Source of the DNA: Naegleria gruberi
Lineage: Eukaryota
Length of the DNA stretch: 64,000 bases
Assembly (NCBI GenBank): GCA_000004985.1
Contig: GG738875.1
Direction: 5' to 3' (one strand)
A program made the translations under genes and the position numbers. Shown piece after piece: positions 4,915 through 63,145 of this stretch; position 1 is the stretch's first letter, and each line of letters starts with the position of its first letter. The notes below the pieces were generated by a model. It was not told the DNA's origin. It worked only from the letters and a program-made list of their open reading frames with translations, and did not search any database.

Positions 4915-4995
4915 GTTGAGGTGGCCGAGTGGTTAAGGCGCCAGCCTGCTAAGTTGGTGGAGTAATCCGCGTGGGTTCGAATCCCATCCTCAACG
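4915..4995 (+). tRNA. tRNA-Ser (anticodon GCU), 81 nt, no encoded CCA, followed by a T4 Pol III terminator at 4996-4999
   Basis: Hand-folded cloverleaf. Acceptor stem GTTGAGG/CCTCAAC plus discriminator G. 3-bp D-stem GCC/GGC. Anticodon stem CCAGC/GTTGG with loop CTGCTAA (GCT at positions 34-36). Long variable arm. T-arm GTGGG-TTCGAAT-CCCAT. Confidence 0.85.
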
Positions 4996-34476: not shown

Positions 34477-37400
34477 TTAATAGTTTACAGCAGGTTTTGT
34501 TCTAGGTTCGTAATCTAAGGAGAGCTTGTAAAGTTTGTCTTCGTCCATATTGTGAATATTCTTGAGTCTTTCTTGTAGCTCTGGAACATTTTGGAGGGAG
34601 TATGGAGTTTGTTGATAGGTTTGGATGTCTCTGATGAGCATGGCAAGTTTTCTTCTCTTGATGAAATTAATCTTATCATTGAGAACGTTTGGATTACCAT
34701 CTTCGATAAATGTCAAATCAGTGAGAAAGACTCCAATGTATGGTATACATGGTGGTTTAACATAGAGAATGGCATGTCTGATAGCTCTAAAGTTATTGTC
34801 ACCACTAATGATGGCCAGTAATTCTTCATGATCTCTTCTACTTTCGCTCTTGAGTGCTTCCCATGTCTTTTTAAGTCTGTGAACTGCAGAATTTTGTAAA
34901 CCACTGACAATTTCAAAAACAGCATTGAAATTATTCAATTTTCTACACTCTTCAGCAATTTGAATCATCTTGGTGAGGATTGTCTTTCTTTCTTTAAGAC
35001 TTGGTTCGCTCAAAATCTTGGTTGCAACCCATCTACTGACACGATTGAACCAAGTAATCATTTGGAAGATGTTATAGGCCTTTTCCTCTCTTGACTCCTT
35101 ATTCCATGATTGATTCAAACATTCCTTTGGTCTAATTGATTTAAACATGTTATATTCAATGAGAGTTATTTGTCTAGCAATTTCAGCACTTGGCCATTCT
35201 AGAATATCAAACTTGGTCAAATCATCCTTTCCTGGTCTATATTTTTTAGGAAACTTGACAGCTGTCTCAATCTTTACGAAAACCTCGACATTGTTTGTGG
35301 TAAGAGATTGTTGTCTCTTAATAGAATTCAATAATTGGGTAGCAAAGTGTTTTCCTTGAGTATTTTCCATAACGGTACTCAATTTTTTAACCTTTTCTAA
35401 TAATTCGGCATCATTTTCAAAGTCATGATAGTGATTTTCAAGCCAGAATTTGATTACTTGGGTAACTCTGAGTCTGACTTGTTGTAAAACTTCTTCTTGC
35501 CACTTGGCAAACTCATTCTTTGTAATGGTTTTTGGATTTGGTGGAGGGAGATTATATCTGGAAAAAAGTCTATCCATCAAGTCATGTGGACTTGTGAAAG
35601 ATCGGTAAGTGAGCAAGAAGGCATACAAATAGGCATTATCATAATTTTTGTAAAAAGTTACACGTTCAATGAGCTTGTCCAAGGTTGCACACTTGATTTC
35701 CATGGCTTGATCAGATTCTTCATCTGTAGATTCCATCCACATGATATTTTCTGGTGAATCCTCTTCATATTTTTGATTGGTTTGAGTAAAGTCATAGTCG
35801 TAGTAGTCTTTTGGATCCTTTTCTTTTTGGCTTTCTTCCTTTGGAATTTGAGTGACACTCATGCTCATGGCATTTGATGCTGGTTTGGAAAATTGAGCTT
35901 GGAATTTAACAAAATTGAAAATAAAGAATTGGAAATCCAAATCAAAGTGATGTTTCAAAATTTTTGATTCTTCTTCGGATGTTACAATAAAACGAATATC
36001 TAACAATGTAGATGAAAGACGATTCTCAATGCAATGTTCAAATGTTGATCTGAAAAAACATCTGGCAGCTGCCACCCATTGACTCTTCAAAAGACCGTAT
36101 TGTGGAACAATCTTTTGGCCATTATGAGCTAAAAATGGTGCAAATGCAATAGATTGACATTCGAGAGTATCAACACATTCCAAAGCATTTCTTACAGCAT
36201 TACTAAGGGAGTGATAAAATTTGGTTTTGGTCAACTCGTTAGAATCCAAATTCACGCCATCCAAATCAGTGGAATTCTTTGATGGAATAACATGTAAAGA
36301 TGAGCTGCCAGTAAAGAGATGGATCAAATGACATTGTCCATTAGTACGATTTGGCATTGAGAAAGTACTGCAAAAGACTTCTCCCTCATTGAGTCCACGG
36401 GAGGCCTTTTCTTTTTGAATATATTCCTTACATTGTTGAATAATATCCTTGGAAAAGGTTTCAGTTGCATATTTGGCAGCACCATTAGCCTCTCCTTCAC
36501 AACTCAATTTAGAGTCATTACCAACAACAAATCCTTGAACAAGCTCAGAAAACAAGTCATCCATTTGAATGAGTGATACTCTGGCACCTTTAGTTACTCT
36601 CTTTCCATTGGATGATGACTGTTGAGATTTGTTGAAAATTGGATTGACAGGATATTCAATGATCAGTTTGCCGTTTGTTGTCTTATCCTTTTCTCTGATT
36701 GATTGTACTGTTGTTGTTGCTGCTGTTGTGGAAGATGAAGAAGAAACACTATCCACAGATAAATTTGATGATTTCTTCTCAATTGTATTTGTGAGGGATG
36801 AAGATGAATTGGTCTTGTTGAGAATTAGAGGAGATTCCTTTCTGAATACTGATGGAAGTCTCTTCTTTCTTTCTCTTGCATTTACCAATAACTTGTCAAC
36901 ATCCAAATGATCATTAACAGTCGATGAATCATTCGAGGATAGATCATCATTTGAAGCAGTCAATCCAGGAAGTTTGAAACTTGATCCACTCGAAAGTGTT
37001 GTACTCGATTCAGAATCTGTATCTTCTTCAGTATCACTGGAAACTAGTGTCTCTTCGTTTTTCTGTTAAGAGAGAATTTTTTAACACATTGTTATTAAAA
37101 TTGAAATAGGATGTTTTTTTAACTAACCTTTGTTTTTCCTAATTGAGAAATGTTATGTTCCTGTATTTTCTCATACTTTTTCACAAGTGAATCAATTTTA
37201 GAATCGTGATGGGAAAGTTGTGTATTCTTTGGATTTGATTTGACAAGTTTTTGAAGTTGTTGATTCTCTTGTTCTAACAACTGATTTTTGTATTCTAATT
37301 GTTGCTTCTCCTTTGTCACGATAAATAATTGTGTTTGTAAAATGTTAATTTTCTCGACCATTTCCTGAACTGACATTTGACTTCCAGATGTTATTGTTTT

Positions 37401-37658
37401 TAAATTGTTACTTGGTTTTGAAGTCAGAATTGATTCTGCTGATCCTGATGCCGATGTAGCATTATTTGTTGTTGTCTTTGGTCCACTGATTTTAAAACTT
37501 TGTGAAGTTGTTGGTGTTTGATTATTACCTCCCGTTAATGTTTTAAAGAATGTTGATTTGAGTGAAGAAGATATGGAAGGAGAGGTTGATGATGATGTGG
37601 TTGGTATGGGAGAGTTGTTGGAGGACGAAGGAGAAGGCTGTGTTGGCCGAAATGACAT
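34477..37658 (-). CDS. Ras guanine-nucleotide exchange factor (RasGEF_N + CDC25-homology domain) with long Ser/Thr-rich coiled-coil N-terminus; join(34477..37062,37128..37658), intron 65 nt (GTTAGT..AG)
   Basis: The listed ORF 37119..37658 joins in frame to the 34477..36963 ORF through the upstream open frame. The RasGEF N-terminal motif (LIERVTFYKNYDNAYLYAFLLTYRSFTSP) and catalytic-domain blocks (EIARQITLIEYNMFKSI...NFNAVFEIVSGLQNSAV...PCIPYIGVFLTDLTFIEDGNP) are present. Confidence 0.65.
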
Positions 37659-41514: not shown

Positions 41515-41633
41515 GGCTACGGCCATATCACGATGAATGCACCTCATCCCGTCCGATTTGAGAAGTTAAGCATCGTCGAGCCACATCAGTACTGAGGTTG
41601 GAGACAACTTGGGAACCTGTGGTGCTGTAGTCT
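41515..41633 (+). rRNA. 5S ribosomal RNA gene (~119 nt), followed by a T-run Pol III terminator
   Basis: Matches the eukaryotic 5S consensus from memory: GGCTACGGCCATATC...CATCCCGTCCGAT..GAAGTTAAGC...GTACT.AGGTTGGAGA...GGGAAC...GGTGCTGTAGTCT, then TTTT. Confidence 0.8.
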
Positions 41634-41961: not shown

Positions 41962-43044
41962 ATGGTCTTTTTTCGCATGCCACAATATCTCAAGCAACCG
42001 ACAAGGGAAGAGCGAACACCCATCAAGGCTAAAAAAGAAGGACGTTCACCACTCCAATTATCTAGTCCCACTTCATTATTCGAAAGTAATGGAGAGTTGT
42101 ATATTGTGGATAATTCTCAAGGAAAGGTTTATAAAACACTCCGAAATGGTCATGTAGTTGTGATTGCTGGAGGAGGAATGGAAACTAAAGATGGGAAGCC
42201 AGCACACGAGTCGAAATTGGAGGGACCTTTCGGGATTTGTATTTCGAAAGGAAATGAAGTGTTTATTAGTGAAAGAGAAGGAAATCGTATTAGAAAGATT
42301 GATAGATTTGGAAATATTTATACTGTGGCAGGAACTGGTGAGGCAGGTGATAATGAAGATGGAAATGCATTGGAATGTAAACTAAACGAACCTTGTGGAA
42401 TAATAATTAATGAACTAGATCAAATAATTTTTGCTGATAAAGAAAATGGAAAGATTAGAATGATACAATCGGATGGAAATATCAAGACATTACTATCGGA
42501 AACATATTACATTACTAATTTATGTCAAGATGAAAGTGGAATCATTTACTTTGCCACCAGATCAACAATTTCCAAACTATTCCCGAATGGAAATGTCGAA
42601 ACATGCGAAAGAAAGTTACAGAAACAAACTCCTGGCAAGATTTATCCATTCACTGATCTGCAATCTCATACACCATTCGATATCAAAATTAGAAATGGAA
42701 TTGTACATTATTCAGAAAGATTATTCTTGAGAAATTTTGATCCCATGAATGGAAATGATAATGTTCTAGCTAAATTGGATGCTGTTCAAAAACCATTAAC
42801 GAAAAAGATTCACAAGAAGAATTTTGTGGCAATTTGTCCGTCCAATGATGGAACTGTCTACATGTCAGATGATATGAGAGGAACTATTTGGAGACAAGGT
42901 CCACAACCTCATGTACTTAAAGAATTGATGGTAAAATGTGAAATACCTTTCAATTTTAAAGATTATCCACATATTGGACCTAGAAAGAGGATTGTAGAGA
43001 GATGTGAGAAATTTTCTGATGTTGTAATTTCATTTTCTAATTGA
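41962..43044 (+). CDS. NHL-repeat beta-propeller protein (360 aa)
   Basis: Repeated NHL-like units (LYIVDNSQGKVYK; VFISEREGNRIRKIDRFGNIYTVAGTG; IIFADKENGKIRMI). Confidence 0.5.
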   Translation: MVFFRMPQYLKQPTREERTPIKAKKEGRSPLQLSSPTSLFESNGELYIVDNSQGKVYKTLRNGHVVVIAGGGMETKDGKPAHESKLEGPFGICISKGNEVFISEREGNRIRKIDRFGNIYTVAGTGEAGDNEDGNALECKLNEPCGIIINELDQIIFADKENGKIRMIQSDGNIKTLLSETYYITNLCQDESGIIYFATRSTISKLFPNGNVETCERKLQKQTPGKIYPFTDLQSHTPFDIKIRNGIVHYSERLFLRNFDPMNGNDNVLAKLDAVQKPLTKKIHKKNFVAICPSNDGTVYMSDDMRGTIWRQGPQPHVLKELMVKCEIPFNFKDYPHIGPRKRIVERCEKFSDVVISFSN

Positions 43045-43145: not shown

Positions 43146-46100
43146 TTAATTAATTTTCTCAATGATCGTGTCAGTGCTGTAACTTGCCAATTCTAAATTA
43201 CTTTCCTTATCTTTCATAGTTCTCTTCAATTTTCTAGATTTCATTTTCAATTTCTGATAATAATCAGGCCAAACCATATTCTTAAAACCTGTCAAGGCAA
43301 TATCAATTCCCAAACAAGTGACAGTACACAACAAGAGAATTAACCAGAATTTAGGAGATCTCATTGCCTCAAACCAAACACTTGTCATACTTGATTGAAT
43401 TATTGTGAAAATTACAACGAAAATAACAAATGACAAGATTGAAAATATCATTCCAGCATGATGAATAATTGTCAAATGCTCCATTTCAATATAACACTTG
43501 AGAGTAATGACAACAAACACGCAGGTATACAATAAGGCACACATTGCCCAAATTCCATCCGATTGACCATTTGTTAGTAATCCTGGCTCAGCTGCATAGG
43601 TACAGAAAAAGAAAATGATTGTTCCATGTAGGAATGCTCCAAATACCCATTTTGAAAAGGTATACCAATTGAAAATGTTATCAGTTTTCAATTTTCTATA
43701 AAGAATAGGTCCAGTTTCTGAATCTTCCAAATAACTTTCATCAATATCCTTTTCGAATAATCCAAAAACAATTGGGTTGACCAAAGTAAATACATAATTT
43801 TGAAATGTCAAGACCAATGATTCAATATTCAATTGTCCAGAGCACAAATTATAAAAGAAATAAATGGTCATCAAGCTAGACACTACATTACTCTTATAGA
43901 ATGAATATTGAATAAAGACAGCTGATCTCTTATATGAATATCTTCCATGAACTGCCAGTAATCGTTTCAACATGTGGAATTTAGGAATGGCATAGTCAGA
44001 CGATTGTTTTGCAAGAGTTCCTTCTTTTCCTATAATACCTACACCTACTTGAGATTTCAAAATCATTGGAACTGAAATAATTGTAATGTTGTTTTGTAAA
44101 ATTGTTGAAAAATGTGAAAAAACTTACCATCGTTGGCACCATCACCAATAGCGAGACAATTCTTTTTCAATTTGTGTCTTGCCAATTCGACAATTCTTGA
44201 TTTTTGCTTTGGAGTTGATCTGAAACAAATGACAGTTTTGCATTTTTGTAATAATTTGACAAGTAATGAAACAGTGTCAGGTTTTTCACATATATGTAAG
44301 AAATGGCCTTCTACTGCGAGTTCTACATTATCCCTTGATTCAGTTTCTTGTAAAATTTCGGAAAGTTTCGAATGAATATTTTCCTCTTTAACACTGGAAG
44401 AATCTAAAAGTATTAAATCAGATTCCTTTTCGATGAGTTTTGAACATCTTGCAATGTGTAAAGCAGATTCTTTGGCATCTCCTGTCAACATCCAAATCTT
44501 TAAACCAGCTTCTGTGAAAAATTTGACAGTTTCTGGAACCAATTGTTGTAAACTATTAAAAATATTACAAAAAATTGTAAACGTGCATTACTTACACATC
44601 TTCAATACCAGTTACTCCACAAGGTAATAAACCAACTTCCATTTCCTTTTCCAATCTTTGAGACAATTCCAATTGTTCATCATGATTCAAACTCTTTGTT
44701 TTCAAAGCATGATAATCTTCCATCCACTGTTTCAATTGATCATTTCCCACAAATTTAAAAGCAAACACCAAGGATCTTAAACCATCTTTAGAAAATTCCA
44801 TAACTCTATCTTCCATTAATTGTCTATTTTCCTTGGCTGATTCTTCCATGAAAGGATAAACGAAAGAATCTGCTCCCTTAGTAAGACACAACACAATGTC
44901 ACTTTCACCATTCGAATTGTGAATGGTTGAAGTGGCTGATTGAATGATGGGATAGTCGTTGAGGAAATCTTTTGGAATTTTGAAGAGAACTGACATTCTC
45001 TTTCTCTCTGGTGTAAATTCCAATTCTGCCAATCTTTCGAATGTGTATTCCTTTTCGAATAGGGAGAGAATTGTCTTTTTGTCTGAGAAATACTTGAGAA
45101 TGAAACCGTAATTGGAAATTCCTTGAACCAGAGCTACTTCATCTGATGATTCTCCATCATAGGTTTCCCTTTCTTTCGACTTTCGAATAGTTACATTGTG
45201 ACACAGTGAAATGTTCAACATGAGCATTAATTTAGTCAGGGAATCTCTCGATTGTTGGCCATTTCTAATCGATTCCTCAATACTTGAATCACAATTAAAC
45301 GAAGAATGTCCAACAGCCCAAATCTTTTTCAATTTCATTTCATTTTCAGTCAATGTTCCAGTCTTGTCTGTCAAAATCAATTCAATTCTTGCCAAATCAG
45401 AATGCAAATCACTCGAAATTGCAGCAGACGAAACAAATTTCTCCTCTCCAGTATGAACATCCATCATTCTATGAACTAGCTCATTATCTGCTGAAATGAA
45501 CCTCGCTTGAATAATCTTTAAAAATTCCAAAACAACAAACAATGAAGCAGGCACGTAAACATTCAAAGCTGCAATATAAACTAAAATCGAGTGAACCACC
45601 CATAATCCATCAGAAATTCCCATTGGTTTCAATTTACCCAAATAGGCAACATTTTTCGAATAAGTAAATTCATAGTATGCATTCAATATTACTAAAATGG
45701 AAATAATGACTGTCATGAAAATGAAAAGGACAACAGTAAAGAAATTTCCCATCAAATTAACGTGAGAAAATTTGACTTTTGGATTTGGAACATTTCTTGC
45801 AACTTTTGTATCTTTTCCTGCATAGATTACAATTCCATAAATATGTGGAGATTTGAGTTTTGCTCCTTTTAGTAGTAAATTTTGATGATTAATACCAAAT
45901 TCATTATTTTCACCTTCTAAACAAACACTTCCTTTGAATTTGTAAAGATTGTGATCTGGCATTTGACATTTAATCCATCCTTTCAAATCTTTTAACATGT
46001 CAATATTATTAAATTTAGATAAACTATGAGGAGAATATCTACTTTTCAATGCAGATTCACCATCCAAATTAGCTGTTTCAATATTACAACTTCCATCCTC

Positions 46101-46745
46101 AAAATTAGACGAAACTAACAGCAAATCAGCTGGAAATTCTTCATCTTCCTCAATTTTCACCAAATCTCCAACTTTAACATGTTTCGTATAAATTTCTACA
46201 AAGTCCAAATATTGAGTAATTGAATTCCCATCCTGTTTAAGAGATCTACTCTTCAGAACGAGAACTTTCTTGTGATTTACTTTTCGATCTTTGAGATAAC
46301 GAAAGAAATCTTCACCTCCCTCTCTTACAATATTTACAACAAGGATGATGATGATTGGGATTTGTGCTAGGATTGGACTTGAAGGCCAAACTCCTGGAAT
46401 CCAAGCAATGATGGCGATGAAAAGAAAATAAAGGTTTCCGATTTTTTTCATTTGTTGAAATAAGTTTAGGATTAGAAAATTCCACCAAGTATACTATCGG
46501 AAAGGTCAGTTTCAGAATGTTTCATCAGATGAGTTGAAATTTAAAGATAAACTCCGATTCGCTCGCGAGTAGATGAAACATACCTTTGTAGTACTCAAAT
46601 AATTCGTAGACGAAAATTGACGAAACGGAAGGAAACCCCACTTTTTAATTCTTCTCTTCTTATTGGTTTGCCAATCATTGATCGATACAACATAGGGATA
46701 ATTATCTTGTTGCTGGTGATCAAAACTAATGGGTTTCTCTTGCAT
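43146..46745 (-). CDS. P4-type ATPase (phospholipid flippase); 4 exons join(43146..44071,44128..44552,44596..46493,46584..46745), introns 56, 43 and 90 nt
   Basis: Hand splicing restores family motifs across the exon joins: N.I.TTKYT..NFL..NLFQQ..IGNLYFL; the DKTGT phosphorylation site; [59 protein letters not shown]. Confidence 0.7.
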
Positions 46746-47470: not shown

Positions 47471-48410
47471 ATGTCGGATTGTGATTTTTTGTATAAAGGT
47501 AGGAAGAAGTAATTTTAGAAATATTAATATTTAATAATTATTTGATGATTGTGATGATGAATGTATAATGATGAAATAATATTTGATGATGATAATTTTA
47601 ATAATGTGTGGTGGTGAATGATGAATAGTGGTTGTATTGGGTGATTCGGGTGTTGGAAAATCGAATTTAATTATCAGATTTACAAAGAATATTTTCAATA
47701 CACAACCAAAACCAACGATAGGTGTAGAATTTGCATCAAAATCAATCTCGTATGATGGTGCTACGATCAAGGGACAAATATGGGACACGTATGTTGTTGA
47801 TAATTTATATGAATTTAGTTGAATTTACAAAATATTAATAATTTAATAATGATTGAATATATGTGTTTATTATCATGATTCAAGTGCTGGACAAGAGAGA
47901 TTTCATGCTGTATCTGTTCAGTATCATCGTGGAGCTCATGGAGCATTGATGGTTTATGATATTACCAATAAGGAATCATTTGAACATTTGGAAAAGTGGT
48001 TTAATGAAATTAGTAAACAAGGAGAGGAAGGATGTATCTATATTGTAATCGGAAATAAGTGTGACTTGGCAGGTCAGAGACAAGTCACTGAAGAGGAAGG
48101 TAAAATTTTTGCAGAAAAGAGAAATCTACTATTTATGGAAACATCAGCATTGGACTCGACAAATGTGGAGGAAGCATTCTCAGTGCTGTTGAAGAATATT
48201 TATCATACTAGAAAGCAAGCCAAACGAAATATTGAGGATGATGATATTTCAGAACCTATTCGAGTACCACTCCCATCTCAACCATCCATATCTCAGGATG
48301 ATTTGGGATCGAGTTATAAAGTCAGTTTGGATGTGTCACATCAACATCGTGCGCAGATGACAGCTACACATCAAACAACTAGAACCAATAATTCAACATG
48401 TTGTAAATAA
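47471..48410 (+). CDS. Rab11-family small GTPase; 3 exons join(47471..47498,47629..47788,47885..48410), introns 130 and 96 nt
   Basis: Spliced protein reads [31 protein letters not shown]...TIGVEFA...IWDTAGQERF...GNKCDL...ETSALDS. It ends NNSTCCK, a CCX prenylation motif. Confidence 0.7.
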
Positions 48411-48561: not shown

Positions 48562-51500
48562 TTAACACCAAATCATTTGAACGAGCAAGATGACAATGCA
48601 ATAGAATGAAAGATGGGTTGCATTTGCAGATGCTAACTTGAAACTTCCCTGAGGAGTGGTAATGTTTGAATTTTGAACCTTTACAGATTGACTTGGTTTT
48701 GGGCCAGGTTTTGGAGAAGGTTTAGGAGAAGGACTTGAAGATTGTTGAGGAATTGGAGAAGGTTTAGGGGAAGGTTGTGGAGAAGGAACAGGTACCATTG
48801 AAGAACAGTTGAGTCCTGTGAAACCTGCAAAACAAGTGCAAGTATCTGGTTTGGAACAATTTCCATGTCCAGAACAAACCAAGCTGTCACTTTCAGTCTT
48901 ACCGTAACAAACAACTTGTTCACACTCTTTACCTGTATAACCAACATTACAAGTGCATTGATCATGGCCACTACAGCTTCCTCTTCCACCACATACAGAA
49001 ATAGAGTTTGAGGGTATACTAAAGCAGGTAGTCAATGAACAATCTACACCAAACCAATTTTCAGGGCAAGAAACTGATTTATGCTCACAGTTACTGCCAT
49101 AATAACCATCTTTACATGTACAATTATTAAATGAAGAACAAGTTCCATTACCTGAGCATACATTTGAGTTAACTTTTGATATACCATAACAATCATACAT
49201 TTCACAATTGGATCCATAATATCCAATTTCACAAGTACAATTGTTTGGAGAAGCACATTTTCCTTTTCCAGAACAAACAGTATTATTCATAAAATGTACT
49301 CCATAACAATTAAATTGATTGCAACTGCTTCCAAAATATTCATCAATGCAAGAACAGTTATTTGGAGATGGACACGATCCATGTGATGAACATACATTAG
49401 TGTCTGTTTTTGATACTCCATAACAATTGAAATTTTCACAATTATTACCAAAATAATCTTGTTGACAGGTGCAATTATTCAAAGAAGAGCAAACACCATT
49501 ACCTGAACACACATTAGAGTTGGATTTTGCAAAACCATTACAATCATACATTTCACAATTGCTGCCATAGTAACCTTGTTGACAGGTGCAGTTATTGGAT
49601 GAAACACAAGTTCCATGACTTGAACAAACACTTGAATTCAATTTAGAAATATTATCACAATCATATATTTCACAATTACTGCCATAGTAACCTTGTTGGC
49701 AAGTACAATTATTGAATGAAGAACAAACTCCATGAGCTGAGCATACATTTGAGTTAACTTTTGATATACCATAACAATCATACATTTCACAATTGGATCC
49801 ATAATATCCAATTTCACATGTACAATTATTTGGAGAAGCACATTTTCCTTTTCCAGAACACACAGAAGCATTACTAAACTTAACATTGAAACACTTGAAA
49901 TCTTCACAATTAATTCCAAAATATTCATCAATGCAAGAACAGTTATTTGGAGATAGACATGATCCATGTGATGAACATACATTAGTGTCTGTTTTTGATA
50001 CTCCATAACAATTGAAAATTTCACAATTATTACCATAATAATCTTGTTGACAGGTGCAATTATCGAATGAAGTGCAAACACCATGACCTGAACATGTATT
50101 TGAGTTGTTTTTGGATAAGCCATAACAATTATACATTTCACAATTGGATCCATAATAACCAATTTCACAAGTGCAATTATTTGGAGAAGCACATTTTCCT
50201 TTTCCAGAACACACAGAAGCATTACTAAACTTAACATTGAAACACTTGAACTCTTCACAATCATTACCAAAATAGCCTTCAAAACAAGAGCAATTATTTG
50301 GAGAGTTGCAAGTACCATGAGAAGAACACACCATTGTGTTTTTAGAACTAATACCGTTACAGACCACGTCTTGACAATACGAACCAGAGTATCCAGCATT
50401 ACAAGTGCAGTTATTCATACCAACACAAGCTCCTACCGATGAACATACTGTGCTAGAGTTGAAAGGAATAGAGTTACAATAAAAGTATTGACAAGTTTCA
50501 CCATAATAACCACTTGCACAAGAACAATTATTTGGAGATGCACAACTTCCATGGGATGAGCAAACGTTTGATTGATTATTCAATAAACCATAGCAATAAA
50601 ACTCCCCACAATTTGGACCAAAGTAATTGGTAGAGCACCAAGGAGTTAGGGTTCTAATCAGATTCATATCATTAATATAAATTTCACCAGTTGAACTAAT
50701 GGCAACTCCAGTAGGATTAATTAATCTAACACTTGTTGCAAAACCATCACTAATGAAATTAGTGGATCCTATAATTCCATTTCCTGCAATCGTTGAAATA
50801 ATACCAGTTGTTGTTATTCTACGAATTACATAATTGGAAGTATCAGCAATATAAACTTCTCCACTTGAACTAATGGCAATTCCATTTGGATAATTTAATT
50901 GAGCACTTGTTGCCAAACCACCATCACCACTATATCCAGAAAGTCCAGTTCCTGCAATTGTGGTGATATTTCCATCTGTTGTGATTTTACGAATTCTATT
51001 GTTAATTCTATCAGCAATATAAACTTCTCCACTTGAACTAATGGCAATTCCAGTAGGACTATTTAAATGAGCACTTGTTGCCAAACCACCATCGCCACCA
51101 TATGCTGCAAGTCCAGTTCCTGCAATTGTTGAAATAATACCACCTGTTGAGATTTTACGAATTCTATGATTGTTGGTGTCAGCAATATAAATTTCACCAT
51201 TTGCAGAAAACTCAAAAGTAGTAGCAGAAATATAAGCTGCAGTTGCAGCTATTCCGTCGCCTATACCACCAACTACAGTAAAAATGTTTCCTGATGTAAT
51301 TTTACGAATTCTATGATTGTTACTATCGGCAATATAAATATCACTAGTTGAGCTAATGGCAACTCCAGTAGGAAAATATATCTTGGCACTTGTTGCCAAA
51401 CCACCATCGCCACCATATGTAACAACTCCAGTTCCTGCAACGGTTGAAATAATACCAGATGTAGTAATTTTACGAATTCTATGATTGGCTCTATCGGCAA

Positions 51501-53372
51501 CATAAATTTCACCAGTTGAACTAATGGCAACTCCAGAGGGAGTGTTTAACTTGGCACTTGTTGCCAAGCCACCATCACCACTATATCCATTAGTTCCAGT
51601 TCCTGCAATTGTTGAAATAATACCAGCTGTGGAAATTTTACGAATTCTATGATTACCATAATCAGCAATATAAATTTCGCCAGTGGAACCAATGGCAATT
51701 CCAGTAGGAACGCTTAGTTTTGCACTTGTTGCCAAGCCACCATCACCACTATATCCATAAGTTCCAGTTCCTGCAATTGTTGAAATAATACCAGATGTTG
51801 TTACTTTACGAATCACATTATTGTTAGTATCAACAATATACATCTCACCAGTTGAACTAATTGCAATTCCAGAGGGAGTGTTTAATTGAGAACTGGTTGC
51901 CAAACCACCGTCACCATTATAACCAGAAAAAGTATTACCGTTTCCTGCAATTCTAGTAGTAAAAGATGTTACCATGTCTAGGTAATTATTACTATAAAGC
52001 ACATATAATACATTGTTGTAATATTTGGCAAATGTTGGGTTGTTGAATGATTGTACAACAGTTGTAGTACCAATTACGCCAGCAATAGTAGAAAGTGTTT
52101 TGGTGGAAAGGTCTATTTGTCTTACTTGATTAGTAGAATCCGCGAAAACAAGATATCCATTACTAAGGGTAGGGGAATTCATTGGTGAAATTATAGCCTT
52201 GGAAGCAGGAATATTATTACCAAAAGAAGATGTTCCAGCAAAAGTTGAAATAATACCAGATGTTGTCACTTTACGAATTCTACTATTGTCAGTATCAACA
52301 ATATATACTTCATCACTTGAACTGATTGCAATTCCATATGGATTGCTTAATTGAGCACTTGTTGCCAAACCACCATCACCATTGTATCCATCTCCATTCC
52401 TGCAAAAGTTGAAATAATACCAGATGTTGTCACTTTACGAATCACATTATTGTAAGTATCAGCAATATAAATTTCATCACTTGAACTGATTGCAATTCCA
52501 TACGGATTGTATAATTGAGCACTTGTTGCCAAATCCCATCACCATCATATCCTGCATTTCCAGTTCCTGCAAAAGTTGAAATAATACCAGATGTTGTCAC
52601 TTTACGAATTATATTATTGTTAGTATCAGCAATATACATTTCACCACTTGAACTGATTGCAATTCCATAAGGATTATATAATGAAGCACTTGTTGCCAAA
52701 CCACCATCACCACATATCCTGCATTTCCATTCCTGCAACAGTTGAGATAATACCAGATGTTGTTACTTTACGAATTCTCTGATTGTAAGTGTCAGCAATA
52801 TAAATTTCATCACTTGAACTGATTGCAATTCCAAAAGGATGATCTAATGAAGCACTTGTTGCCAAACCATCATCACCATCATATCCTGCACTTCCAGTTC
52901 CTGCAAAAGTAGAAATAATACCAGATGTTGTTACTTTACGAATTACATTATTGTTAGTATCAGCAATATACATATCACCAATTGAACTGATTGCAATTCC
53001 ATAAGGACTATATAGTGAAGCACTTATTGCCAAACCACCATCACCTACATATCCAACATTACCATTTCCTGCAACAGTTGAAATGGTTGAAATATTTCCA
53101 TATGTTGTCACTTTACGAATTCTCTGATTACCAGTATCAACAATATAAATTTCACCACTTGGACTGATTGCAACTCCATAAGGACCATATAACGGAGCAC
53201 TTGCTGGTGCTAATCCATCACCAATTAAAGAACCACCACCTGCAATAGCGGTGATATTATAAAAGGGTTGGCTTTGTGCATGCGTGATAACAGCGAGAAA
53301 GCAGCAGAACACAAATGTACCTAGTAATGTTATTAATTTCATTTTTTTTGGCAAATAACAGCATTGTGTCAC
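48562..53372 (-). CDS. Giant secreted NHL-repeat / EGF-repeat surface protein with predicted GPI-anchor signal. The N-terminal 52347..53372 region is broken by 3-4 frameshifts relative to the intact 48562..52368 frame
   Basis: Signal peptide [24 protein letters not shown]. About 14 tandem NHL units of ~57 aa (..[27 protein letters not shown]..GDGGLATSA). About 20 tenascin-type EGF units ([18 protein letters not shown]). Pro/Ser/Lys stalk and a hydrophobic C-terminus. 1-nt indels against the repeat consensus sit near 52380-52420, 52530-52545 and 52712-52733. Confidence 0.55.
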
Positions 53373-54509
53373 GTCAGTCTTTTAAACTTTGGCTGTCAAG
53401 TTTAAATCCACGAGAACAAAATTTTTTTCCAAATTTGAAATGAAAGAGCTGCAATAGTATGCTACATATGACAAGATGGGTGCTAAGGCGTGTGGAAGAG
53501 TCCATAGCATAACTTTGATGAACATGGAGACTACAAACATTAGTATTACTACCTAATTATCATTGGCATCGGTGTTCAAGATGTTTGTTGTTATTCGGGT
53601 AAATGGTATGAGATTGTTATGAACATGTTATGAAGAAAAAGCACCACTACAGTTTAAGAATCGAGCACGGCAACACCTCTACGAATATTTTTTGTTGAAT
53701 TGAAAATACACTCTAACAGTTTGGTTAAGATCTAAGGCATTTTTTTCAAAATTGTTCTATAAATACAACAAGTTGCTTTTTGGAATGACCACATGATGTC
53801 ATTATATCCACTAAGGATTGAAACTCTAAAAGAACAGCACTCTCATAGAACAGATGACCAACACAAAAGGCAAACAGAAATAAATTGGAGTTATTGAATT
53901 TGGTGTGCCAAATACGACTTCTTAATATATCAGGTGGAAAACATTCTGAACTAACTTTGTGTGAGGATTTGCTGCTAAAAGGTTGAATTCCTTTCAAAGT
54001 AAACAATTCAAGTGGCAGAATTAAAAATCTGGCAGTTTACAAAATAATTCATGAATTGTAATTTTTATATTTAATAATCATTTAAGGAGTTCTAATAAAT
54101 TTAATTAGCAATTTGATATTGAAAATGATTGAAATTTAAATTATGGTGTTTCTTACACTTGATTATTGAGTATTTAAGTATTAGAAATAGGTATTGAATG
54201 TTGCGGTAAATCCAACACAAAGGACAAAATAACATGCATGATGTTGACATTATCATTGTTGGAATTTTGTTGATTTATTCGAAAATAATTTCCAATAAAT
54301 TTTGGATTCTTTTCTAAACTTTACTTTTTAGAGTGCTTGCCATAAATAAATTTCATTGTAAAGTGTGTAAAAAATTAATTATTTTCCAAAGTAAGCGAGC
54401 ATTGGCTGTAAACGGAGAAGGAGAAGGCGTTGGTGAAGTTATGTGACAGGTGGCGCATCCTGTCAATAATTTCAACTTGAAGAAAAAACCAAAAAACCAT
54501 TCAACGAAC

Positions 54510-56513
54510 ATGCAAAGAGTTGCGTTTTTACTCTTGCTAATTGCATTTTGTTTACAAGTGACAGCTTTGGATGACATTTTCACACAACAAGATATTGGAA
54601 ATTTCATAGATAAAAGTCAAGTGGAAGAAGTTTATGTTTACGAACGATTACACAGCAACTTGATAACCATCAGAAACAAACTTGACATTTGGCAGGTAAA
54701 TCAATCATTAACAAACAGCACCAACACTACAAATTACGGAGGTTGCAATCCCATTCTCTTCCAACTTGGTGACTTTAGCAGAGATGGACCAAACGTCATT
54801 TATTCGATATGCCCTGACACTTGGCTTTCGACAGCCGTCTCCATAACCTTCCTGACAGCTTACGTCATTCTTCTAATAGTAACTGGAATTGGATTATACA
54901 TCAAAAGACACTCCCCTCACATCAAGGCAAGAAACATCACCTACATGCTATTGACAATGATTGCAAATCTTGGATTTATTGCTGTGCATTGTTTGAGATT
55001 TATGATTGGAAGAAGAATTTTCCCTTGTTCGATATATGTCCTGTCGTTTTTCATTGTACCACCTGGAATTTTGTTACCGAGTGTGTTTAGATTGTGGAGA
55101 TTGTACTTGATGCATCGATTGAATTTACAAAAGACGAGTGAAGTTTCGTCTCAGAAAGAAAATAGTGCTGGAAATGAGACAAAGGCTACAATGCCAACAG
55201 TTCAAAGTACTAGCTCTGTTCCAGCTAAGGTTCTTTCTCCATCCACTCCCAATCTAGAAAAGGATTGTAAAAATCCTGAAACCACTGACAGTACTCAAGA
55301 TTCCTATTCTGATGATAATAATTCCTATTGGAATGACAATGAACTCGAATTGAAAAAGAATGCAAAAATCCAAATGATTCTCAACATTTTACTGAGCCAC
55401 AAATTCGTAATTGCCACCTATGTCATCTCTTTCGTATTTCACATTCTACTCTTCATCTTTTTTGGAAGTATCGAAGAGGGAATCAATAGCCAAGATCCTT
55501 CCAAACAGAGAGTCTTCATGGGGGAAGGAGGATTCTTTGTGTCCACTCGAGGATGTCTCATATCCAGCACTATAACCATCATTGTGGCCATCGAAGCATT
55601 ATTCTACGTTGTAATTGAAATTATCTTGTTGATTTTATGTGCAATTATTCCAAGAGATACGTGGTTTATTAAGAGAGAATCAATTGCTTCGACGATTTTG
55701 ATATTTTTTGCAATTATTTTGTTTGCAATTTGTGGATTTATTCCACAAATTTCCAAGTTGACTGATTTTTTGATACCATATGGATTTATTGTAATGGGAT
55801 ATTCGTTTGTGGAAGTTATAATGTGTGTATTGTGTCCGATTTTGTATTCGAATGGTTTGAGAAGGGAACATTTGGCAGAATCTGAATTGAAACAATTTTT
55901 GAGGAATAAGAAAACTTTTAACATTTTGTTGGATTTTGCCAGAAGAAGGTAAGTTTATTATTCTTTCGAATAACTTTCTAATACTTTCTCTTGAAATAGT
56001 TACTGTCCTGAATCAGTAATGTGTTACGATGACATTGAAAGATTCAAATTGACAAATAAGAGAAATAGAAAACGAGCAGCTCTTCACATTATCAAAACTT
56101 ATCTGAAACCTCATGCTCCTCTAGAATTGAATTTCCAAAAATCAGCTCAAACCTACGAACAACTCATTCAATTATTAGAAACCTCGCCAACCATAGACAC
56201 AACCTTTTTCGATTCAATTCAATGGCATTGTGTAGAGGACATGACAGATGTATTCGAAAGGTTGAAAAATCAATCAAAGAAAACGAGGGATATTTTACAA
56301 CAGTGGAGAGAGGAAGCAGGAATTGATCAAGTTGGAAATGTGAATAATCAACAACAAGAATTGAAAAATACTATGAAATTGATTGATTCCATGTCAAGTG
56401 TGCCATCAACACCATCTGTTGTTACATCTGAAGCGTCGAATGGCGTGGCCATGGATTCAACAAATTCTGTAACATTGGAAAAAGAAGTGAAATCACCAGA
56501 GAGTAATTTGTAA
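54510..56513 (+). CDS. Seven-transmembrane protein with C-terminal RGS (regulator of G-protein signalling) domain; join(54510..55948,56000..56513), intron 51 nt (GTAAGT..AG)
   Basis: Signal peptide, glycosylated N-terminal ectodomain, seven predicted TM helices. After the splice the C-terminus reads an RGS box: LLDFARRSYCPESVMCYDDIERFKLTNKRNRKRAALHIIKTYLKPHAPLELNF...FFDSIQWHCVEDMTDVFERL. Confidence 0.6.
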
Positions 56514-59424: not shown

Positions 59425-59474
59425 NNNNNNNNNNNNNNNNNNNNNNNNNNNNNNNNNNNNNNNNNNNNNNNNNN
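59425..59474. other. Assembly gap (50 N)
   Basis: Run of N characters. Confidence 0.99.
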
Positions 59475-63095: not shown

Positions 63096-63145
63096 NNNNN
63101 NNNNNNNNNNNNNNNNNNNNNNNNNNNNNNNNNNNNNNNNNNNNN
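63096..63145. other. Assembly gap (50 N)
   Basis: Run of N characters. Confidence 0.99.

Follow-up and report, generated by a model that had tools for sequence, protein, structure and literature searches.

In a 64,000-nucleotide (nt) stretch of contig GG738875.1 of the Naegleria gruberi assembly GCA_000004985.1 (hereafter the window; positions are counted from its first letter), the minus strand carries an intronless locus whose reading frame is broken by four single-base deletions, and which, once those four bases are restored, encodes a 1594-residue protein composed of a signal-peptide-like N-terminus, a long array of NHL repeats, an array of EGF units, a proline-rich stalk and a C-terminal hydrophobic tail (Table 1). 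The four deletions lie close together in the N-terminal NHL repeats, and we lean, with no more than moderate confidence, towards regarding them as a local consensus error of the draft assembly, in which case the gene would be intact in the organism. The locus is best filed as a new, unannotated member of a Naegleria family of NHL/EGF surface proteins that is built from well-known domains.

As the sequence is written, the minus strand contains a 221-aa open reading frame (ORF) at 52707..53372 and a 1268-aa ORF at 48562..52368, which are bridged by two short ORFs in other frames. Insertion of four bases joins all of these into one ORF that begins at the ATG at 53342, and the repaired reading aligns residue for residue, through all four sites, with a paralog from another N. 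gruberi scaffold (P0188), at 59–60% identity. A preliminary description of the locus had taken 52707..53372 for a signal-peptide exon; it is an ORF rather than an exon, and the ATG at 53342 is the likely start. Translated from this ATG without repair, the locus yields 211 aa, comprising the signal peptide and approximately 3.3 blades, and, since the frameshifts strike blades 4–6 within the first block of six, such a product could presumably not close a propeller. The 1268-codon remainder, which had been described as intact, is indeed fully open, with zero stops and zero frameshifts.

When the NHL-coding units are aligned with one another, three consecutive units (3, 4 and 5) measure 166, 167 and 164 nt instead of 168 nt, and the comparison resolves exactly four single-base deletions, in agreement with the earlier count of at least three frame-breaking deletions between 52350 and 52760. 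Deletion 4 lies two units downstream of deletion 1, at a distance of 333 nt, and removes the corresponding base, and deletion 3 stands beside a G>A substitution in the GDGG motif, which is conserved elsewhere. Every lesion is a deletion (4/4), and all fall inside 334 of the 4781 nt of the gene (P about 1.4e-3 under uniform placement). They also share a narrow phase, namely positions 45–73 of the 168-nt unit (29 nt; P about 0.02), which corresponds to the G-rich linker encoding AGTGxxGYxGDGG, the sole segment in which the units vary in length. Private substitutions at near-invariant columns number 1, 2 and 5 in the affected units, as against 2–6 in the intact canonical units. The deletion sites are not long homopolymers, and two of them could represent AAA shortened to AA.

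The architecture of the repaired protein was read from the sequence together with Pfam searches and AlphaFold2 (AF2) models. Residues 4-20 of the N-terminal segment have a mean Kyte-Doolittle hydropathy of 2.4, and this 23-residue segment and the last 16 residues are the only hydrophobic segments of the protein. In Pfam, the 1594-aa protein matches PF01436 NHL with 294 bits (cut-off 20) and PF25021 TEN_NHL with 323 bits (cut-off 27.1), as well as EGF_2 (199 bits), EGF_TEN (174 bits) and EGF_Teneurin (146 bits), all above threshold, and nothing of substance besides these NHL-type and EGF-type families. The NHL region has 15 IR[KRQT] anchors and approximately 16 four-stranded blades, encoded by 168-nt (56-aa) units. 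Fifteen EGF units fit the pattern C-x10-C-x5-C-x5-C-x-C-x8-C, and the core of the EGF array (50595..49075) consists of 13 units with a strict 117-nt period, which fall into three unit classes and form blocks of 351 nt. The order of signal peptide, NHL repeats, EGF units, proline-rich stalk and hydrophobic tail is thus as first described, with the numbers revised from about 14 NHL and about 20 EGF units to 15 anchors (approximately 16 blades) and to 15 complete EGF units plus two half units. The 16-residue tail has a mean hydropathy of 2.3 and stands at the very end of the protein, and it probably directs glycosylphosphatidylinositol (GPI) anchoring. AF2 models of the intact part encoded in the window show 11 consecutive four-stranded blades, with predicted local distance difference test (pLDDT) values of 80–95 in the canonical blades. 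The model of a second N. gruberi paralog (P0086) shows approximately 18 four-stranded blades, superposes on six-bladed NHL propellers (NHLRC2) at a root-mean-square deviation of 2.2 A, and finds its best Protein Data Bank (PDB) match in a bacterial teneurin-like protein.

Periodicity was measured as base matching at each lag against codon-shuffled controls. The signal that a self-comparison had been expected to reveal is real, with z of about 24–27: in the NHL part, the lag of 168 nt gives z=24, whereas the lag of 171 nt, the unit length first proposed, gives z=1.5, and in the EGF part the lags of 117 and 351 nt give z=25 and z=27. Tandem Repeats Finder and a repeat finder likewise return a period of 168 nt (334–336 nt for two units) in 50650..53220, and periods of 117 and 351 nt in 49070..50550. 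The two-unit super-period of 334–336 nt reaches 95% identity; the N-terminal NHL units are 89–91% identical among themselves and 76–85% identical to the remaining units. Among the EGF units, the best pair (50244..50128 vs 49893..49777) is 97% identical, other related pairs are 79–90% identical and unrelated classes 46–71%. The term near-identical, which had been applied to these repeats, is therefore an overstatement for units that are 76–97% identical. A 38-aa peptide (CFNVKF...EMY) is encoded twice, as had been noted, and its copies lie at 50244..50131 and 49893..49780; the copy near 49300..49190 has only the VCSGKGK...EMY part.

Between the most similar units, synonymous divergence (dS) is 0.09–0.24 for NHL and 0.15–0.39 for EGF, and the ratio of nonsynonymous to synonymous divergence (dN/dS) lies mostly between 0.07 and 0.8 across unit pairs (for example, 0.07–0.58 for EGF). 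A scale is provided by second-strain contigs from metagenome ERR1078381, which differ from the window by only about 3%. By comparison with this strain difference, the unit dS values indicate that the duplications are lineage-specific, though not very recent as had been supposed, and that the copies have been under constraint, while dN/dS values below 1 for most unit pairs indicate that the gene was functional through most of its history. Blade number differs between family members (16 here vs 18 in P0086), and P0188 contains a perfect 110-aa tandem duplication of two NHL units (residues 40..259), so that the unequal exchange originally suggested as ongoing in this gene is plausible for the family. 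In P0188, this duplication, together with the break-off of the model after the first EGF unit, reflects either a very recent duplication or an assembly or model problem.

The pattern of the four lesions fits a local consensus error better than neutral decay, because all are deletions, they are clustered, they occupy one phase of the unit, substitutions are not in excess in the affected units, and the frame is open throughout the other 4.4 kb. Neutral decay scatters lesions, and in pseudogenes substitutions normally far outnumber indels. On this reading the bases were probably lost in a thinly covered or low-quality stretch, or where reads fell out of register in the array's most self-similar part. 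The preliminary description had posed the choice between assembly error and a decaying copy, and that choice stands; the homopolymer error that it named as a cause fits poorly with the sites themselves. Several points weigh against an artefact. The lack of long homopolymers at the sites is one, and another is that the case for it is drawn from the pattern of the lesions. Furthermore, the base lost in deletion 1 is lost again in deletion 4, at the homologous position of an otherwise clearly diverged unit (proportion of synonymous differences between units 3 and 5, 0.16), and this shared loss could reflect a mutational hot spot or a context-specific sequencing error. Multigene surface-protein families commonly include pseudogenes, and a protein collection that does contain N. 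gruberi paralogs yielded no gene model for the locus, an absence that is compatible with either reading.

If the deletions are instead real, which we regard as a serious though less probable account, the gene was inactivated very recently, either as a unitary pseudogene or as a null allele carried by one haplotype in a heterozygous genome. It would then yield at most a 211-aa secreted fragment, and the lesions would owe their clustering to error-prone exchange or slippage where the array is most self-similar. In favour of this account, the frame is interrupted four times and runs into a TGA at 52709..52707, the search for a gene model came back empty, and the homologous placement of deletions 1 and 4 resembles a hot spot. 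The affected units are also the most alike in the gene (89–91%), and hence the most prone to misaligned exchange, and the arrays are dynamic, as shown by the differing blade numbers of the paralogs and the perfect duplication in P0188. N. gruberi is stated to be heterozygous in a passage of PMC9928731 that cites Fritz-Laylin 2010. On the other hand, neutral decay is unlikely (P about 1e-3) to place four independent frameshifts within 334 nt and zero in the other 4.4 kb. Substitutions are not in excess in the affected units, and no stop interrupts the remaining 1268 codons; the locus combines a disrupted frame (four 1-nt deletions and the TGA) with none of the signs of relaxed constraint in substitutions, stops or dN/dS. 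A single conversion event cannot account for the lesions, as no unit in the gene carries these deletions and could have served as donor, and among the paralogs found even the nearest has only about 60% identity; this origin was rejected. Should the deletions prove real, the locus would represent a pseudogene of very recent origin, in a family whose repeats are dynamic. That they are both real and recurrent, with the G-rich blade-linker of tandem NHL units acting as a mutational hot spot, is a speculative extension, prompted by the base shared by deletions 1 and 4 and by the common 29-nt phase, to which we give little credence. If it were true, members of the fast-evolving surface family would be switched off, and perhaps on again via gene conversion from neighbouring units, which would make the locus a eukaryotic analogue of contingency loci, or a case of birth-and-death evolution caught at its first step.

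An assembly fault on a larger scale, which is a sub-case of the artefact explanation, appears unlikely. Here, units of a longer array, or of two haplotypes that differ in unit number, would have been collapsed, the indels would mark bad joins, and the true number of N-terminal blades would differ from that given above. The position of the indels in the linker, the only place where unit length differs, is consistent with such joins, as are the two-unit super-period (334–336 nt), with its identity of up to 95%, and the draft state of a scaffold that contains gaps. However, the flanking units retain a regular a/b alternation and unit-specific differences, and the first block of the paralogs likewise has six blades; moreover, units that are 89–91% identical can usually be separated by long Sanger reads.

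Least probable is that the locus is expressed as written and its frame restored by tiny introns, programmed ribosomal frameshifting or insertional RNA editing. The perfect conservation of the repaired reading is the only observation in favour. Introns were rejected because no GT..AG signals of the kind found in real introns nearby (GTAAGT...TTTCAG, about 55 nt) flank the deletion sites. Homology runs continuously through each site, exactly one base short. Frameshifting and editing were also rejected: four separate recoding events would be required, the TGA stands 8 codons past the first site, there are no slippery heptamers, and nuclear insertional editing is not known from Naegleria.

The locus was also sought among annotated and predicted proteins. 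Neither the full repaired protein nor its N-terminal 473 aa found itself in the protein collection; an identical entry would have ranked first for the full protein, but bacterial multi-NHL proteins filled both result lists, and the best N. gruberi matches were paralogs. A query that joined the signal peptide to the degenerate-blade region had no match there. Exact look-up of the 211-aa product, of the 1206-aa protein that the 1268-aa ORF gives when read from its first ATG, and of an alternative-frame 253-aa product likewise found none of them in the collection. No ortholog was found in the collection, including the proteins of ERR1078381, a metagenome (PRJEB11402) that contains a Naegleria about 97% identical in DNA to strain NEG-M, and a scan of JGI metagenome contigs returned only relatives of 34–59% identity and no close ortholog. 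In the order of UniProt and GenBank accessions, three slots remain between D2VJA7 (41962) and D2VJB1 (58174), which are presumably filled by the P4-ATPase, Rab and multi-pass membrane genes. A literature search on Naegleria with NHL, EGF or teneurin returned nothing relevant.

The window is gene-dense, with a GC content of 31–37%. An exact-sequence look-up found nine of its 20 ORFs identical to GenBank/UniProt proteins of N. gruberi NEG-M, all from a single 396,166-bp scaffold (including EFC43242, EFC43244, EFC43162, EFC43163 and EFC43166), and a tenth identical solely to an ENA metagenome protein. NEG-M is the sole N. gruberi genome in the comparison of PMC9928731. Two 50-N gaps in the window mark the scaffold as being of draft quality. 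The assembly itself is one that we take to be the ~8x Sanger whole-genome shotgun of Fritz-Laylin et al. 2010. Elsewhere in the window the genes are intact, with short introns that carry clean GT..AG borders; in the P4-ATPase-like gene, one such intron of about 55 nt (GTAAGT...TTTCAG) interrupts the GDGAND motif and served as the local model of real Naegleria introns. Several window genes are covered by 2–4 kb contigs of ERR1078381, whose Naegleria could supply a second haplotype or strain of this scaffold.

Some further observations concern the neighbouring features. In the Rab-type GTPase gene, ...GQIWDT is followed by a short intron, and another exon probably lies upstream. Neither of the two ORFs at 54450..56513 was matched exactly as a product in the protein collection, for which reason the annotated gene there is probably spliced. 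The metagenome contig L002 ends in the same 5S rRNA sequence as that of the window, and its remainder maps 22 kb away in the window, so that the 5S rRNA is probably a dispersed repeat that caused a chimeric or alternative join. The 179-aa ORF at 37119..37658 may be another unannotated gene.

Table 1. Features of the NHL/EGF locus and of the remainder of the window.
Feature	Position	Strand	Basis and remarks
Whole reconstructed gene	48562..53342	-	ATG at 53342, stop 48564..48562; single exon, intronless; open only with four bases added
Signal-peptide-like N-terminus, 23 residues	53274..53342	-	Read from sequence; equivalent N-terminus in P0188
NHL-repeat region	50641..53273	-	Pfam NHL and TEN_NHL, unit list, unit alignment, AF2 models
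Deletion 1, unit 3	between 52729..52730	-	GCAGGAA^TGG; GGAACTGG or GGAAATGG in other units
Deletion 2, unit 3	between 52711..52712	-	GGATATGT^GGTGATGG; placement ambiguous by 1-2 nt
Premature TGA, start-codon frame	52707..52709	-	Read from sequence
Deletion 3, unit 4	between 52535..52536	-	GGTGATGG^GATTTGG
Deletion 4, unit 5	between 52396..52397	-	GCAGGAA^TGG; unit 5 also short of one codon
Two degenerate NHL blades	52278..51937	-	Within NHL region
EGF array	48805..50640	-	15 complete six-Cys units and 2 half units
Pro/Ser/Lys-rich stalk	48679..48804	-	Read from sequence
C-terminal hydrophobic tail, 16 residues, GPI-signal-like	48565..48612	-	Preceded by small residues ASANAT; P0086 ends likewise
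P4-ATPase (flippase)-like gene	43146..46451	-	Split into three ORFs by short introns
Rab-type GTPase gene	47628..48410	+	Convergent with NHL/EGF gene; ~150 nt between 3' ends
Multi-pass membrane ORF, 480–500 aa, then 164-aa ORF 66 nt on	54450..56513	+	
5S rRNA gene	41515..41633	+	Rfam RF00001, 105 bits; between two protein genes
tRNA-Ser(GCT)	4915..4995	+	Rfam and ARAGORN both
179-aa ATG ORF	37119..37658	-	In collection from ENA source only; one-member cluster, no NCBI entry
Assembly gaps, two 50-N runs	59425..59474 and 63096..63145		Read from window

The picture that we propose is that of an intronless N. gruberi NEG-M gene belonging to a lineage-specific family of secreted surface proteins. 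Judging from the domain types, the rigid EGF stalk and the proline-rich spacer would hold the NHL propellers off the membrane, and the propellers may bind a ligand (prey, substrate or other cells). Within the lineage, 168-nt blades and 117/351-nt EGF units multiplied through tandem duplication, and the copies have since diverged for the most part under purifying selection. It is apparently for want of four bases that the N. gruberi reference has no gene model of this 1594-aa surface protein, and settling them would add one member to a little-studied NHL/EGF surface family of a model free-living amoeba. More generally, a cluster of frameshifts that falls in a self-similar tandem array of a draft assembly calls for a check against reads before a pseudogene is declared.

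Among the relatives, P0188 (N. gruberi, 636 aa, on a 665-kb scaffold) shares the signal peptide, has 10 NHL units, and continues through the same '...IRKLSPWC' junction into the first part of an EGF array. It is 59–61% identical to the present protein; its model differs in ending after the first EGF unit, in its perfect 110-aa tandem duplication and in having no frameshifts. P0086 (N. gruberi, 1074 aa, on a 236-kb scaffold) has, like the present protein, six blades followed by degenerate blades and then more blades, and proceeds to a Ser/Thr/Pro stalk and a hydrophobic tail, but it has 18 blades (two more), lacks the EGF array, and its model has no signal peptide and no frameshifts. A more distant relative, P0089 (1776 aa), lies on a metagenome contig of 37% GC (L083) and has an NHL array followed by approximately 17 tenascin-type EGF units, with 35% identity over 93% of the query; it differs in a second NHL block after the EGF array and in that the called product lacks a signal peptide and a hydrophobic tail. 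On the same contig (3518..9845), this 1776-aa NHL–EGF–NHL gene is directly followed by a 319-aa EGF-only ORF, and the two may together form a single longer gene of a protist, or else a tandem pair. The window gene at 41962..43044, which had been put forward as a paralog, is a distant NHL protein with 35–42% identity over parts; it is small and has neither signal peptide nor EGF units.

Database searches are dominated by bacterial multi-NHL proteins (35–58% identity). Such surface proteins, annotated as 'sugar lactone lactonase YvrE' or 'NHL repeat-containing', together with the PknD sensor domain, have NHL units that are 40–58% identical to those described here and share the motif GDGGxAT...YIAD..N.RIRK, but they combine NHL repeats with Ig, FN3 or T9SS domains, and not with EGF arrays or GPI-like tails.

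The preliminary description had also spoken of a teneurin-like domain repertoire in reversed order, GPI-anchored rather than type II. Teneurins and bacterial teneurin-like proteins, which provide the best PDB sequence and fold matches (PDB 9ifo, 6fb3; PMC13018210), are defined by the FN-plug/NHL/YD-shell superfold (PMC13018210). In the repaired protein, Pfam found no FN-plug, YD/RHS shell, TTR, ABD or Tox-GHH domain, and the C-terminus, composed of the proline-rich stalk and the hydrophobic tail, has no domain match and no toxin-type domain. On its predicted domains and topology the protein is not a teneurin, as it lacks the superfold, the type II topology and the toxin domain; with the superfold absent, it has no bearing on teneurin origins. 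The likeness does not extend beyond two domain types that are themselves generic: an NHL beta-propeller, and EGF units of the tenascin type. Teneurins have one six-bladed propeller and 8 EGF units, compared with approximately 16 blades and 15 EGF units in the Naegleria protein, and they are held by a type II transmembrane helix with a cytoplasmic domain, whereas the Naegleria protein has a putative N-terminal signal peptide and a putative C-terminal anchor, in keeping with the suggestion of a GPI-like rather than a type II attachment. The order of domains is reversed along the sequence, but relative to the membrane it would be the same in both, with the EGF units proximal and the NHL repeats distal.

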